Program-made: the position numbers and the translations under genes
Notes under the pieces: model-generated
Told to the model about the DNA's origin: nothing
What the model saw: the letters and a program-made list of their open reading frames with translations, nothing else
The model's database searches: none
From: Escherichia coli 042
Lineage (GTDB): Bacteria > Pseudomonadota > Gammaproteobacteria > Enterobacterales > Enterobacteriaceae
Direction: 5' to 3' (one strand)
NCBI RefSeq assembly: GCF_000027125.1
Contig: NC_017626.1
DNA: 64,000 nucleotides
Part shown: piece after piece, positions 930 through 10,329 of the stretch
How positions within the stretch are numbered: the first letter of the stretch is position 1
Layout: every line of letters starts with the position of its first letter

Positions 930-3821
930 ATGATTGGTACAACACCTTATCATGCGAAATATTTTGCGCATGAACTTTCCATTCTTCATTCAAACAATGG
1001 GGTGGACCGTCTGTCTCAATCGCTGTTTGATGCAAGCGTAGATCTAAACCCTCATCAAATTGAGGCGGCTCTTTTTGCTATCGAAAATCCGCTAAGCAAA
1101 GGTGTTGTGCTTGCCGATGAAGTTGGTTTGGGTAAAACCATTGAAGCTGGACTAGTGCTTTGCCAGTTGTGGGCTGAAAGAAAACGTAAACTGTTGATCA
1201 TTTGTCCTGCTTCACTGCGTCGCCAATGGGCGAGCGAGTTACAGGAAAAGTTCAATCTACCTTCTCAGGTGTTGGACGCGAAAATGTATAGCCAGCTTCA
1301 AAAAGAAGGGATCCATAATCCCTTAAATAATAAATCGATCACTATCATGTCATACCACTATGCTGCTCGGTTAGAAGAGAAATTGGTGGCTGAAATGTGG
1401 GATCTGGTTGTTATCGACGAAGCCCATAAACTGCGTAATGCTCATCGAGAAAGCAACAAAATGGGGCAAGCGTTAAAGCGTGCGCTTGATGGGCGGAAGA
1501 AATTACTACTGACCGCAACGCCTTTACAGAACTCGTTGATGGAACTGTATGGCATGTCGACGCTTATAGATGAACATACCTTCGGCGAAGTTAAAGCGTT
1601 CAGAAAGCAATATATGCAGGCAGATAGCGATATTGCGGAGTTGAAGGGGCGATTGTCGCGTTTTATCAAACGAACTCTACGCAAGAATGTGCTGGAGTAT
1701 ATCAAGTATACAGAACGTAAAGCGATCACTATTCCTTTCTATCCGAGCGAACAGGAGCAGGATCTTTATGAACGCGTACAAAAATTGCTTGAACGTGAGG
1801 ATAGCTATGCCTTACCAAAACGACACCGGCATCTGACGGGGCTTATACTCAGAAAACTACTTTCCTCAAGTACGAAAGCCGTATTGAATAACTTGCAGAT
1901 CCTTAAGACTCGTTTAGAAAGGTTAAAGCTGGAAGGTATCGTTGAAGATGATATGGACATCATCCAACAGATCATAATGGATGATGATCTTGAAGATGAC
2001 ATCGTTGAAGATGCCGAATCAGTAGCGCCAGATACAGAGTGCAAATCTGTGGATTCAGATGCGCTTCAGGCAGAAATCAATGAGCTGGAATCACTCATTG
2101 TCAAAGCAGAACAGATTGGCACTGATACCAAATCAAAAGAGTTGCTTTCTGGCCTGGAGCAAGGTTTTGCACAGCTTGCCGAAATGGGGGCTGCAAAAAA
2201 AGTCATCATCTTCACGGAGTCGATGCGAACTCAACAGTACCTTGCACATTTTCTGGAAAACAATGGCTACCAGGGAAAAGTAGTAACCTTTAGTGGCACA
2301 AACAATACACCGCAGGCAAACAAGATCTACCAGCAATGGCGCGAGGAATATCAGGGATCTTCTCGTATTACCGGGTCGGCGCAAATTGATAAACGCTCGG
2401 CTTTGATCGACCACTTCAAAGATCATGCTGAAATCATGATAGCTACAGAAGCTGCAGCTGAAGGGGTGAACCTGCAATTTTGTTCGCTACTGATCAATTA
2501 CGATTTCCCCTGGAACCCACAACGCATTGAACAGCGTATTGGACGTTGTCACCGATACGGGCAAAAATTTGATGTGGTTGTTATTAACTTCCTCAATCAG
2601 CGAAACCAGGCCGATCAACGCGTTCTTGAACTCTTAACTGAAAAGTTCAGCCTGTTTGATGGCGTGTTTGGCGCATCGGATAGTGTGCTTGGCAGCATAG
2701 AAAATGGTGTGGATTTTGAAAAAAGGATCCAGTCAATTTATGAGTCATGCCGTACCCCCGAGGAGATAGAGCTGGCTTTTGAAAGGTTGCAGAAAGAGCT
2801 GGAAGATGAAATCAATCTCAAGATGCAGAAGACGCAAGAACAGTTGCTTGAGCATTTTGATGAAGATATTCACGATATCCTTAAAATAAGGCTTGATGAA
2901 GCTCGGGAGCGCCTGGATAAAGTCGGTCGTTGGTTTTGGGCCGTGACCTGTCAGCAGCTCAAACAATATGCTGATTTTGATCATGAGCATCATCGTTTCA
3001 CTTTACGTGAATCAGTCAATGAACTGCCTGTCGGGCAGTACCAGCTGTTGCGCAAAGATGGCAGGCAAAATAGTGCGTTACAAATGCAGGATCACCACAG
3101 TTTTGCATATCGGATCAATCATCCGCTGGGTGAGTACGTCATTGAGGGAGCCAAAGCCCAGGAGACGAAAACAGCTGAAGTCATCTTCGATTACAGTAAC
3201 CACACAACGAAAGTTTCGGTGGCTGAGCAGCTGAAAGGGCAATCAGGATGGTTAACACTAAATTTGCTTACTGTTGATGCGTTTAACAGGCAGCAATTTT
3301 TAGTCTTTACCGCGAAAACTGACAACGGACGTGTGGTAGATGGTGAAGCTTGTAAACGTCTGTTCAACTTGTCTGCAATAACCAACGAAAAGCTGGATAA
3401 TTCGGCAAGTTTAGATGCATTACCTGATGACTTGATCTTACTCAAGAACAGGCAAATTGACGCCAGGCTTGCAGAAGTTTTGGAGCAGAACTATGTCCTT
3501 TTTGAAGCGGAAAGAGATAAGCTGGAAAAATGGGCTGAAGACATGATCTTTGCGGCGGAAGAAGCATTACGCGATACCAAAATGCAAATCAAGTCGTTGA
3601 AGCGAGAAGCCAGGCTGGCGCAATCGATCGAAGAACAAAAGCAAAACCAGGAAAAGCTTAAGCTACTGGAACGGCAGCAGAAGCGTCAACGTATGGAAAT
3701 TTTTGACATTGAAGATGAGATCGCCGACAAGAGGGATGAACTCATCAGTGCCCTTGAAGAGCGGATGAAGCAAAAGACGGATATCACCGAGCTGTTTACC
3801 ATCCGCTGGAAAGTTATTTAA
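930..3821 (+). CDS. SNF2-family (SF2) helicase/ATPase with C-terminal charged coiled-coil-like region; gene 1 of candidate defence operon
   Basis: 963-aa ORF from ATG 930; motifs in translation: LADEVGLGKT (motif I), VVIDEAHKLRN (DEAH), LLLTATPLQN (motif III), QRIGRCHRYGQK (motif VI); C-terminal E/K/Q-rich region. Confidence 0.85.
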   Translation: MIGTTPYHAKYFAHELSILHSNNGVDRLSQSLFDASVDLNPHQIEAALFAIENPLSKGVVLADEVGLGKTIEAGLVLCQLWAERKRKLLIICPASLRRQWASELQEKFNLPSQVLDAKMYSQLQKEGIHNPLNNKSITIMSYHYAARLEEKLVAEMWDLVVIDEAHKLRNAHRESNKMGQALKRALDGRKKLLLTATPLQNSLMELYGMSTLIDEHTFGEVKAFRKQYMQADSDIAELKGRLSRFIKRTLRKNVLEYIKYTERKAITIPFYPSEQEQDLYERVQKLLEREDSYALPKRHRHLTGLILRKLLSSSTKAVLNNLQILKTRLERLKLEGIVEDDMDIIQQIIMDDDLEDDIVEDAESVAPDTECKSVDSDALQAEINELESLIVKAEQIGTDTKSKELLSGLEQGFAQLAEMGAAKKVIIFTESMRTQQYLAHFLENNGYQGKVVTFSGTNNTPQANKIYQQWREEYQGSSRITGSAQIDKRSALIDHFKDHAEIMIATEAAAEGVNLQFCSLLINYDFPWNPQRIEQRIGRCHRYGQKFDVVVINFLNQRNQADQRVLELLTEKFSLFDGVFGASDSVLGSIENGVDFEKRIQSIYESCRTPEEIELAFERLQKELEDEINLKMQKTQEQLLEHFDEDIHDILKIRLDEARERLDKVGRWFWAVTCQQLKQYADFDHEHHRFTLRESVNELPVGQYQLLRKDGRQNSALQMQDHHSFAYRINHPLGEYVIEGAKAQETKTAEVIFDYSNHTTKVSVAEQLKGQSGWLTLNLLTVDAFNRQQFLVFTAKTDNGRVVDGEACKRLFNLSAITNEKLDNSASLDALPDDLILLKNRQIDARLAEVLEQNYVLFEAERDKLEKWAEDMIFAAEEALRDTKMQIKSLKREARLAQSIEEQKQNQEKLKLLERQQKRQRMEIFDIEDEIADKRDELISALEERMKQKTDITELFTIRWKVI

Positions 3822-3841
3822 TTGATTTGAAAGAGAAAATA

Positions 3842-9900: not shown

Positions 9901-10329
9901 TTTGTTGATTCGACAAAAGGGCAGAAAATTATTGGTGATAAAAGTTTATATCTGCTAAGAAATGCGGATTCTAAAAATAGAGGCCTGGGCTTTGCTACTG
10001 CGGGTAATTTTTATCCGGATTTCTTATTGTGGTTAGTCGATGATAAAAGTGGTAAACAATGGTTAAGTCTTATTGATCCAAAAGGCATCCGCAATCTTAA
10101 TCTTGATGATCCAAAGTTCGGATTATATAAAGAAATCAAGAATCTTGAACATAAATTATCGGATGATAACTTATCATTAAGTGCATTTATTGTTTCTGAA
10201 ACTTGTTATGTTGACTTAGTAAACGTACCTGATTCAAAAGAGAATCTGGAAGCCAGAAATGTGCTTTTTATTGAGGATACTGGCTCATTGTATCTGGAGA
10301 AATTATTCAGTAAGATGGTTAGCGAGTAA
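6949..10329 (+). CDS. SF2 helicase with C-terminal PD-(D/E)xK-like nuclease motif (Type III Res-like); gene 3
   Basis: ATG 6949 with GGAGGAGG Shine-Dalgarno overlapping gene 2 stop; Walker A NATGSGKT, DExH box LIDEGHKG, motif VI QLFGRGVRLKG; C-terminal YPDF...LIDPKG. Confidence 0.78.
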   Translation: MAKKPTTGKAVKKETNSKLSFHKQLVLNRFMFHFFKDGTLQGLKNRLGEDRFEGIHEDGQSLFFHELSNYLFEVDLIDLDELRRYDLNIVQHWQQITEHRNRKEDTVLNMKYFQYLSLLFTEIYLDWYFNRKQQLLDGLNNELAAYNAENDKTAKDRANQFKSYVLDDLNKLAYWNATGSGKTLLLHVNILQYLHYFQNGNSHHYPDKIILLTPDERLSKQHLDELENSGFTQYQLFDKSKSAPFKGTIEVIDINKLADEMGDKTVAVEAFEGNNLVLIDEGHKGTGSAAGAWMRRRDKLTRDGFAFEYSATFGQAVAGGNNVEAVETEIQKKKAKLLFETTALGKLSEEQLAQIALTSEEQRDARIQATREVYGKSILFDYSYKFFYEDGYGKESLILNLNPEEDKKDERRYEYFTACLLSFYQQQYLFNKNKEKLNEFNIEKPLWVFVGNTVSGEDSDIHAVLRFLAWFLNHESQAKSWIKDLIENKARILDTKERNIFENRFTALMNGPEDIYADILSRLFNTTHSGQRLRVLNLIGSKGELALQVGEAEPFGLINIGDAPSLYKMCEEDTTFDYQRDDFAKSLFHTLNDKDSQLHILIGSRKFTEGWSSWRVSTMGLLNMGRGEGSQIIQLFGRGVRLKGRNYSLKRSTPGERPKGLHLEKLETLNVFGVRADYMATFKQYLEDEGITPSDEILELNFETRPNMPATRLKTLKLKDGYKDNQRLGFKRVYFPELYEVPADFQGKIKQPHIKLDLYPKLESIDTSRKGDNTPVNVRNEAKLDYKIISAFDFDRLYLAIQNYKLQRGWSNLRVDKQRLIDFCTGKTKIGNSWYTLLIPASELEIKQYADIAKQEDIMLRLLTDYTDRFYNTLKNAYEGQFYEVTQVKEDDPGMIKMYHFEIEETDDGLAYASRLEQLQQLVIDGEIGKAKSWSASGMVAITFDKHLYYPLLSIEKNANIPLKMRPAALGASSEITFVHDLQSFVDSTKGQKIIGDKSLYLLRNADSKNRGLGFATAGNFYPDFLLWLVDDKSGKQWLSLIDPKGIRNLNLDDPKFGLYKEIKNLEHKLSDDNLSLSAFIVSETCYVDLVNVPDSKENLEARNVLFIEDTGSLYLEKLFSKMVSE

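Follow-up and report, generated by a model that had tools for sequence, protein, structure and literature searches.

A probable new allele of the Eco86II-type Type III restriction-modification system, with three genes and a different mod specificity cassette, at the leuX/nanS site of Escherichia coli 042

The three-gene block at positions 930-10329 of the window, that is, of the whole 64,000-nucleotide stretch of the E. coli 042 genome (NC_017626.1) that was analysed, very probably represents another allele of the three-gene Type III restriction-modification (R-M) system typified by Eco86II, situated at the leuX/nanS defence islet. As the earlier note had correctly read from the sequence, it is a single operon-like unit that encodes an ATPase of the SNF2 type, a Type III-like Mod of the beta class and a 'Res' combining SF2 helicase and nuclease. 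Its proposal that this is an undescribed, 'atypical' system did not survive comparison with E. coli NCTC86: its SNF2 protein matches the one encoded at the Eco86II locus at 98.9% identity and its Res the counterpart there at 98.5%, and the two Mods are identical except in the core. Near-identity to a characterised, named system, which the note itself had listed among the findings that would overturn its proposal, is largely what Eco86II provides. The system type, its activity and its third gene were published in 2021; the window holds a new allele. The features discussed below are the following.

930-3821, + strand: gene 1, SNF2-family SF2 ATPase, 963 aa (Pfam, PADLOC and NCBIfam matches)
3842-6946, + strand: gene 2, Type III Mod, beta-class amino-methyltransferase, 1034 aa (Pfam N6_N4_Mtase, 8.1e-16; PADLOC MTase_III)
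5008-6475, + strand: swapped specificity cassette in mod, about residues 390-880, with DPPY, target-recognition region and FxGSG (DNA alignment with NCTC86)
6934-6941, + strand: Shine-Dalgarno-like GGAGGAGG for res, within the last mod codons and 7 nt 5' of the gene 3 ATG (read from the sequence)
6949-10329, + strand: gene 3, Res, 1126 aa (PADLOC REase_III PDLC03654 and Pfam ResIII)
10341-10373, no strand assigned: perfect hairpin with a 15-bp stem, between the stop codons of res and the convergent small ORF (terminator-like scan)
10376-10678, - strand: small convergent ORF, 100 aa, acidic, accompanying the module in Gammaproteobacteria

The program-made ORF list opens gene 2 at TTG 3827 (1039 aa), whereas RefSeq and all homologues place its start at ATG 3842 (MSKYNELV..., 1034 aa). 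With the latter start the three co-directional genes are separated by 20 bp and 2 bp, the spacing given in the earlier note, and GGAGGAGG bears out its placement of the gene 3 Shine-Dalgarno sequence inside the end of gene 2. A consensus scan 5' of gene 1 yielded no convincing promoter. The G+C content of the operon, guessed by eye at about 40%, is 40.4% (44.5, 37.0 and 40.0% for genes 1 to 3), compared with 48.6% for the whole window and 51.1% for the flanking core at 16-64 kb; this AT-richness and the situation at the leuX island support the suggested horizontal acquisition of the block. The lowest value, 34%, falls on the swapped mod cassette. All motifs that had been listed for the three proteins were found, and E-values for the Pfam, PADLOC and NCBIfam matches, ranging from 2.6e-07 (ResIII, gene 3) down to 0, show that the gene pattern is not due to chance. 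Compared with the Salmonella and Serratia orthologues, for which dS is saturated, genes 1 and 3 have a dN/dS of about 0.03.

The locus occupies the same leuX/nanS chromosomal site, with the same flanks, as the Eco86II locus of NCTC86, and DNA identity outside the cassette amounts to 97.7% and 96.3% on its two sides. As in the Eco86II subgroup, a gene for an extra SF2 helicase-like ATPase lacking a nuclease motif lies just 5' of mod. Murray et al. (2021; PMC8259958) demonstrated that Eco86II functions as a Type III R-M system. M.Eco86II by itself produces m4C at GAGCC, and ATP-supplemented, partial cutting occurred about 25 bp 3' of GAGCC on plasmids with head-to-head sites (PMC8259958). The extra ATPase is dispensable for methylation and left no peptides in the active nuclease fraction (PMC8259958). 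The extra gene, which the earlier note counted among the departures from canonical Type III R-M, had already been described 5' of mod by the REBASE curators for Eco86II, BspHIV and more than 500 genomes (PMC8259958). A literature search found no follow-up paper on Eco86II.

What sets the window allele apart is the central part of Mod. The DNA aligns with that of NCTC86 at 96-98% identity over positions 1-5007 and 6476-11415, with no alignment in between. At the protein level the two Mods are 65.9% identical overall, 14-58% in residues 400-900 and 84-100% (mostly 94-100%) outside, residues 1-400 and 900-1034 being about 100% identical. In the protein, a conserved N-terminal extension of about 390 aa and a C-terminal domain that is likewise conserved enclose the variable methyltransferase/target-recognition core. 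Mod matches PADLOC MTase_III PDLC03646 over its full length with 1624 bits, its motif IV (DPPY, 497-500) precedes motif I (FAGSGTT, 774-780) with the target-recognition domain in between, and the nearest folds are solved Type III Mods, in keeping with a Type III Mod fold. The core of the STEC1575 Mod is 99.4-99.5% identical in NCTC86, F9792 and O27:H7 B4103-1, the sources of Eco86II, EcoF9792I and EcoB4103II, all of which recognise GAGCC (PMC8259958). Because the core encoded at 5008-6475 is a different cassette from this GAGCC allele, a recognition sequence other than GAGCC is to be expected, and perhaps another methylated base. This base would be N6-adenine or N4-cytosine, between which the DPPY motif cannot discriminate since Eco86II carries DPPY and yet makes m4C. 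Among E. coli genomes the window's cassette is present in 85 and that of Eco86II in 34, while res occurs in 165. Long simple-sequence repeats of the kind associated with phase variation are absent from mod and res, the only repeat being (TA)5 at 5320. Residues 123-163 of Mod are invariant although predicted to be disordered and could form a partner docking site; as this segment is kept in Mods of loci lacking SNF2, the partner is more likely Res or DNA than the SNF2 protein.

Res consists of an SF2 DExH ATPase/translocase (about residues 165-690) and a C-terminal PD-(D/E)xK-type nuclease module (about 970-1085). PADLOC REase_III PDLC03654 covers the full length with 2318 bits and is the only PADLOC match; Pfam ResIII matches at 2.6e-07. 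The motifs are GSGKT (179-183), DEGH (280-283), QLFGRGVR (634-641), YPDF (1022-1025) and LIDPKG (1041-1046). The combination of SF2 ATPase and PD-(D/E)xK endonuclease domain typical of Type III Res is apparent from these motifs, from the SF2 fold and from the conserved nuclease residues: E975, P1023, D1024, P1044 and G1046 are invariant in 65 homologues, while position 1043 is occupied by D (58 sequences) or E (7), and position 1045 by K (54) or H (11). The residues E975...P1023-D1024...[DE]1043-P-[KH]1045 map to an alpha-beta-beta-beta-alpha-beta core. A profile of the C-terminal 187 residues gave no meaningful independent nuclease-fold match among PDB sequences and Pfam, and in whole-chain fold searches the helicase part dominates the matches.

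Gene 1 carries GLGKT (66-70), DEAH (163-166) and QRIGRCHR (535-542), which show no variation in 41 homologues, and matches Pfam SNF2-rel_dom (1.3e-36) and Helicase_C (3.6e-19). Its residues 31-671 are DrmD-like (PADLOC DrmD, 658 bits). The protein contains SNF2_N and Helicase_C only; no nuclease domain was found among the 41 homologues, and none of them has a Pfam domain in the C-terminal part of about 290 aa (about 672-963), which is conserved within the family and ends in a coiled coil. The nearest families are methylase-partnered defence SNF2 helicases, namely DrmD, BrxHI/HII and DpdE. Gene 1 corresponds to what has been called the 'additional helicase-like ATPase' in systems of the Eco86II type.

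In a scan of other genomes, an SNF2 gene adjoined Mod-Res in 47 of 55 informative loci from more than 10 phyla, on the same strand and immediately adjacent, with gaps mostly of 8-75 bp. Two gene orders occur among these loci, SNF2-Mod-Res (S-M-R) and Mod-Res-SNF2 (M-R-S). There are also two-gene Mod-Res loci (L006, L029, L045, L055, L073, L074), and in one locus (L054) a remnant of the SNF2 C-terminus lies directly 5' of mod. Unrelated defence genes are inserted within some of these loci. Res and the N-terminal domain of Mod have co-evolved tightly (Mantel r = 0.93), and for SNF2 the coupling is looser (r = 0.51 and 0.37), a pattern that fits an accessory factor.

Extrapolating from Eco86II and from Type III enzymology, we infer restriction activity, recognition site and methylated base of the window allele as follows. 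Mod would recognise a short asymmetric site and methylate one strand, so that host DNA is marked. On unmethylated sites, ATP hydrolysis by Res would switch the Mod-Res complex to sliding along the DNA. Once two such complexes, coming from unmethylated sites in head-to-head orientation, encounter each other, Res would cut about 25 bp 3' of a site with its C-terminal PD-(D/E)xK module. By the same analogy the SNF2 ATPase is best regarded as an accessory and not a core subunit, since it is dispensable for methylation by Eco86II and absent from its cutting fraction. The favoured, though unproven, idea is that it acts only in vivo as an ATP-driven double-strand DNA translocase or remodeller, which would remove proteins that block the way, or would dislodge or shift Mod-Res complexes; one-dimensional communication could then take place on protein-coated phage DNA, or host DNA would be spared. 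We propose this specific remodeller role tentatively. It is similarly conceivable, at a level well short of probable, that the protein is needed in vivo though dispensable in vitro, for clearing roadblocks, for countering phage anti-restriction proteins or for evicting complexes from host DNA so that self-cleavage is avoided. It may also stimulate cleavage, in vitro cutting by Eco86II having been only partial.

A stronger version would make the SNF2 protein the obligatory in vivo effector or sensor of a DISARM-like system, in vitro cutting by Mod-Res being a side activity. The methylase-partnered relatives of gene 1, its presence beside Mod-Res at 47 of 55 loci in various phyla, the strong purifying selection and the invariant ATPase motifs would suit this reading, as would the incomplete cutting by Eco86II without SNF2 and the observation that deletion of drmD and drmMI nearly abolished protection by class 1 DISARM against one phage (bioRxiv 10.1101/2021.12.28.474362). 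We nevertheless regard it as unlikely: two-gene Mod-Res loci persist in several lineages, Eco86II methylates without SNF2, which is also missing from the active nuclease fraction, SNF2 has co-evolved less closely with Res and Mod, and genes for DrmA, DrmB and DrmC are lacking. Alternatively, gene 1 might work independently of the R-M pair, as a helicase acting on its own in defence or repair whose only connection with Mod and Res is that it occupies the same islands. Defence genes do cluster in islands, foreign ones have entered these very loci, and the history of SNF2 is partly its own. Yet immediate same-strand adjacency in 47 loci from more than 10 phyla, its survival of the permuted order M-R-S, the SNF2 remnant just 5' of mod in L054 and the more than 500 genomes with an extra helicase counted by the REBASE curators (PMC8259958) make mere co-residence highly improbable.

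It is equally improbable that in this strain the locus no longer restricts, being either in decay or reduced to methylation. What speaks for decay is that a phosphorothioate-dependent endonuclease next to the block is truncated and that certain E. coli genomes have mod or res interrupted by IS elements; against it stand three full-length ORFs with all catalytic motifs intact and the occurrence of all three ORFs at 100% identity in many genomes. A functional Eco86II-type R-M system with an accessory SNF2 ATPase is the reading that we retain.

On the 3' side of res, the hairpin at 10341-10373 looks like a bidirectional terminator. The small ORF beyond it adjoins res in E. coli, Salmonella, Serratia, Shewanella, Arsukibacterium and Pseudomonas, in differing flanks. 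It is 95% identical to the NCTC86 copy and 56-59% identical to those of Serratia and Salmonella, with 49 invariant residues, and its pN/pS is about 0.33. No match was obtained in PHROGs and NCBIfam, and the ORF is not present at the more distant loci examined. It is a possible fourth component of the system.

Since two of the three proteins are near-identical to characterised ones, the locus carries little weight as a discovery. Its value lies elsewhere. At a single locus, and with the SNF2/Res chassis unchanged, E. coli carries no fewer than two different Mod specificity cassettes, probably more, which constitutes a natural specificity-swap series for Type III enzymes. Furthermore, the SNF2 linkage is now quantified (47 of 55 loci, more than 10 phyla, two orders, looser co-evolution than between Mod and Res), which sharpens a question common to DISARM, BREX and Dpd, namely the contribution of an SNF2 remodeller to the work of a restriction enzyme. 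If SNF2 were indeed needed in vivo, it would represent a bacterial 'chromatin remodeller' for a restriction enzyme and point to a common logic for SNF2 helicases of the DrmD, BrxH and DpdE types.

Among known systems, Hma, which the earlier note had raised as a possibility, is rejected. The three-gene helicase/methylase/ATPase layout is similar and gene 1 matches HmaA weakly (192 bits), but genes 2 and 3 match no Hma model: in Hma the methylase HmaB makes m5C and the ATPase HmaC is of the DUF499 type (PMC8565338, PMC12839542), whereas gene 2 is an N6_N4_Mtase and gene 3 an SF2 helicase-nuclease. BREX was rejected, as PglZ, BrxC and PglX are absent from the annotated 36-kb neighbourhood and the BrxHI/HII match of gene 1 is only secondary. 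With class 1 DISARM (DrmD + DrmMI + DrmABC) the block shares a DrmD-type SNF2 helicase just 5' of an amino-methyltransferase and the character of a methylation-based defence locus; however, its methylase is a Type III Mod and not DrmMI, and its effector is a Res-type helicase-nuclease. The earlier judgement that the block is not DISARM holds: neither DrmA (helicase), DrmB (DUF1998) nor DrmC (PLD) is found in the block or its neighbours, and by the curated NCBIfam cut-offs gene 1 is rejected as DrmD, reaching 664.7 of 950 bits for DISARM_DrmD_b (NF038318; model positions 22-658 of 868) and 291 of 610 bits for NF038317.

Canonical Type III systems (EcoP1I, EcoP15I) likewise have mod 5' of res and a Res made of an SF2 ATPase and a C-terminal PD-(D/E)xK module, and the likeness in cutting, about 25 bp 3' of head-to-head sites, holds for the Eco86II allele. 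In contrast to them, the window Mod is about 390 aa longer at its N-terminus, an SNF2 gene is added, and Res belongs to a separate family without detectable homology to the EcoP1I/EcoP15I enzymes beyond the SF2 core. Res gave no sequence match in PDB, hhalign with EcoP1I Res aligned 48 columns around motifs V-VI at a probability of 4%, and EcoP15I Res appeared only at rank 14, among generic SF2 folds, in the fold search. EcoP1I Res has no match to PDLC03654, the two proteins falling into separate PADLOC REase_III models. As homology to EcoP15I Res is lacking, the sliding model for the window Res rests on the cleavage pattern of Eco86II. It is the Eco86II locus that the block resembles in chromosomal position, three-gene order and small convergent ORF, and from which it differs in the Mod core, of which residues of about 400-900 are only 14-58% identical.

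[quoted passage not shown] The locus of E. coli NCTC86, from which the characterised Eco86II system stems, matches the window in flanks and gene order, and protein identity amounts to 98.9% for SNF2, 98.5% for Res and 95% for the small downstream ORF versus 65.9% for Mod. Given this near-identity and the shared locus, the block is an allele of a system that has already been published and named, and the candidate atypical restriction-defence system proposed in the earlier note is not borne out. The features concerned are the following:

930-3821, + strand: gene 1, SNF2 ATPase, 963 aa (ORF list)
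3842-6946, + strand: gene 2, mod, 1034 aa, start ATG 3842
6949-10329, + strand: gene 3, res, 1126 aa (ORF list)
10341-10373: hairpin with a perfect 15-bp stem and a 3-nt loop, placed precisely between the res stop codon and that of the small ORF
10376-10678, - strand: small ORF, 100 aa, acidic, convergent with res
10991-11413, - strand: phosphorothioated-DNA-binding (Type IV) restriction endonuclease, 5'-truncated pseudogene

The co-directional arrangement of three ORFs of these lengths, as previously described, is seen in the sequence, and the motifs claimed for the three genes are all found in the order stated. While the mechanical ORF list places the start of gene 2 at TTG 3827, RefSeq and every homologue have ATG 3842 (MSKYNELV), and it is this start that results in intergenic gaps of 20 bp and 2 bp. 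The sequence GGAGGAGG lies at 6934-6941 within the final codons of gene 2, 7 nt 5' of the gene 3 ATG. The low G+C content, earlier estimated by eye, is confirmed by computation, with 40.4% for the operon compared to 48.6% for the whole window and 51.1% for 16-64 kb. The hairpin downstream of res looks like a bidirectional terminator.

Among 5,426 complete E. coli genomes, 165 contain res at a coverage of at least 80%, and only 85 of these share the central mod segment of the window. A second central mod allele is present in 34 E. coli genomes. Between the alleles, SNF2, Res and both ends of Mod are 98-100% identical, whereas Mod residues ~400-900 are only 14-58% identical; the exchanged DNA segment corresponds to window 5008-6475 and has a G+C content of 34%. 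The second mod allele is 99.4-99.5% identical across E. coli NCTC86, F9792 and O27:H7 B4103-1, the sources of Eco86II, EcoF9792I and EcoB4103II, all of which have been assigned the recognition sequence GAGCC (Murray et al. 2021, PMC8259958). M.Eco86II by itself converts the fourth base of GAGCC to m4C, and the partially purified native Eco86II fraction, when supplied with ATP, cuts plasmids with head-to-head sites ~25 bp 3' of GAGCC (PMC8259958). In several E. coli genomes (H12-H16 and H24) the locus is broken by IS1 or IS3-family elements, for which the annotation of H16 and H24 gives a position within mod or res, so that some E. coli lineages are losing the function of the system.

At the C-terminus of Res, E975, P1023-D1024 and [D/E]1043-P1044-[K/H]1045 are kept across 65 diverse homologues and map onto an alpha-beta-beta-beta-alpha-beta core, which is the layout of PD-(D/E)xK nucleases. 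Pfam and PDB sequence searches for independent support of this nuclease fold gave no match. Res represents a distinct family without detectable homology to canonical Type III Res: it matched no PDB sequence, its hhalign alignment with EcoP1I Res has a probability of 4% and is restricted to 48 columns near motifs V-VI, and EcoP1I Res matches PADLOC REase_III models other than that matched by gene 3. The most conserved stretch of Mod comprises residues 123-163 (window 4208-4330), with many positions invariant among 36 homologues. It is disordered in the AlphaFold2 prediction (pLDDT about 30), is kept in loci without SNF2 and may become ordered upon contact with a partner (Res or SNF2) or DNA.

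Gene 1 is assigned to the SNF2-family ATPases on the basis of its Pfam matches (SNF2-rel_dom, 1.3e-36; Helicase_C, 3.6e-19). Among defence families, DISARM DrmD ranks best, followed by BrxHI/HII, HmaA and DpdE; the score against NCBIfam DrmD (665 bits, model positions 22-658 of 868) stays under the curated cut-off of 950. The C-terminal ~290 residues are conserved, although none of 41 homologues has a Pfam match there. A further match of gene 1 (930-3821) is phrog_62 (E = 6e-67), a 'DNA helicase' profile of 1881 positions for giant phage or plasmid proteins, and phage P1 carries the methylase-helicase gene darB near EcoP1I res and mod (L084 10469-12000). An evolutionary link between anti-restriction polyproteins and the SNF2 family of gene 1 is possible.

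An extra SF2 helicase-like gene lies immediately 5' of mod in Eco86II and BspHIV, and more than 500 genomes have it together with Mod-Res; it is dispensable for methylation and yielded no peptides in the active Eco86II fraction (PMC8259958). The Res family comprises 783 clusters at 50% identity (E < 1e-30). Our scan of one genome per species yielded 79 loci from Proteobacteria, Chlorobi, Verrucomicrobia, Chloroflexi, Actinobacteria, Planctomycetes, Acidobacteria, Spirochaetes, Nitrospirae, Firmicutes and others. Next to Mod-Res, 47 of these loci carry a full-length SNF2 homologue with 44-81% identity; in eight it is missing despite adequate flanks, and 24 reside on contigs too short to judge its presence. 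Six are clean two-gene Mod-Res loci, and in L054 a remnant of the SNF2 C-terminus alone remains upstream of mod. Most loci have the order SNF2-Mod-Res; Mod-Res-SNF2 occurs in Pasteurellaceae, Neisseria, Kingella, Cardiobacterium and Moraxella, with adjacency kept at gaps of 2-37 bp (L030, L034, L036, L038, L039, L040, L042, L072). In a Mantel comparison of pairwise distances, Res and the Mod N-terminal domain are tightly correlated (r = 0.93), SNF2 less so with either of them (r = 0.51 and 0.37). Strong purifying selection acts on genes 1 and 3, with a dN/dS of about 0.03 at saturated dS.

'Embedded' defence genes have a hotspot at the mod-res junction. In many related loci this junction contains unrelated defence-type insertions of 1-2.3 kb (L037 8991-10013; L012 8491-9558; L076 8074-9992; L049 7833-9600; L058 8752-9924; L069 7725-9991), among them a PDC-S02/DUF1016-like PD-DExK nuclease, a HEC-01A/B ATPase pair, AbiU/MzaE-like, SoFic and PDC-M36A-like genes. 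In-frame stops occur in mod of other species (L038, L043, L055).

The first 12 kb of the window are 100% identical to several complete E. coli genomes, strains 190693 and FORC_031 among the carriers, and the window is E. coli chromosome. The block occupies the right-hand end of a CP4-type island, neighbored by a nanS remnant, nanM and nanC; in STEC1575 it directly abuts tRNA-Leu without a CP4-like island. The upstream island (window 1-930; L001 1-12000) encodes an antirestriction protein, RadC, a YeeU/CbtA toxin-antitoxin pair, Ag43 and an IS3 element, and remnants of an HTH regulator gene (window about 266-379) closely precede gene 1. The Type IV endonuclease is intact (290 aa) at the matching place in NCTC86 and STEC1575; relative to NCTC86, about 423 bp are missing from the window. 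In E. coli, Salmonella, Serratia, Shewanella, Arsukibacterium and Pseudomonas, the small ORF is found alongside the three genes while the flanks differ. It has a pN/pS of about 0.33, matched nothing in PHROGs and NCBIfam and could be either a regulator or a fourth part of the system.

By analogy with the Eco86II sister allele, Mod of the window would methylate alone and Mod-Res with ATP would cut at a fixed distance 3' of a recognition site, which should differ from that of Eco86II. DPPY is common to both Mod alleles and does not decide which base is methylated. Following Type III enzymology, ATP would trigger sliding of Mod-Res complexes, and cleavage would occur when complexes from head-to-head unmethylated sites collide. 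An accessory ATPase is the best reading of SNF2: its motor is intact, its synteny tight and selection on it strong, but it can be dispensed with in vitro, is lost from some loci and co-evolves less tightly. We tentatively favour the speculation that it might serve in vivo as a translocase or remodeller that removes roadblocks or moves Mod-Res complexes to new positions.

The low-to-moderate value of the block rests on the question of the SNF2 role and on the natural series of specificity cassettes. The block is not a member of the Hma family, which the earlier note had considered, and BREX membership is likewise rejected. Its one feature in common with class 1 DISARM is that a DrmD-like SNF2 helicase is paired with an amino-methylase. 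In the fold of Mod, in architecture and in the geometry of cleavage, the latter known from the Eco86II allele, it is like canonical Type III systems, but it differs from them in its Res, which forms a separate family.
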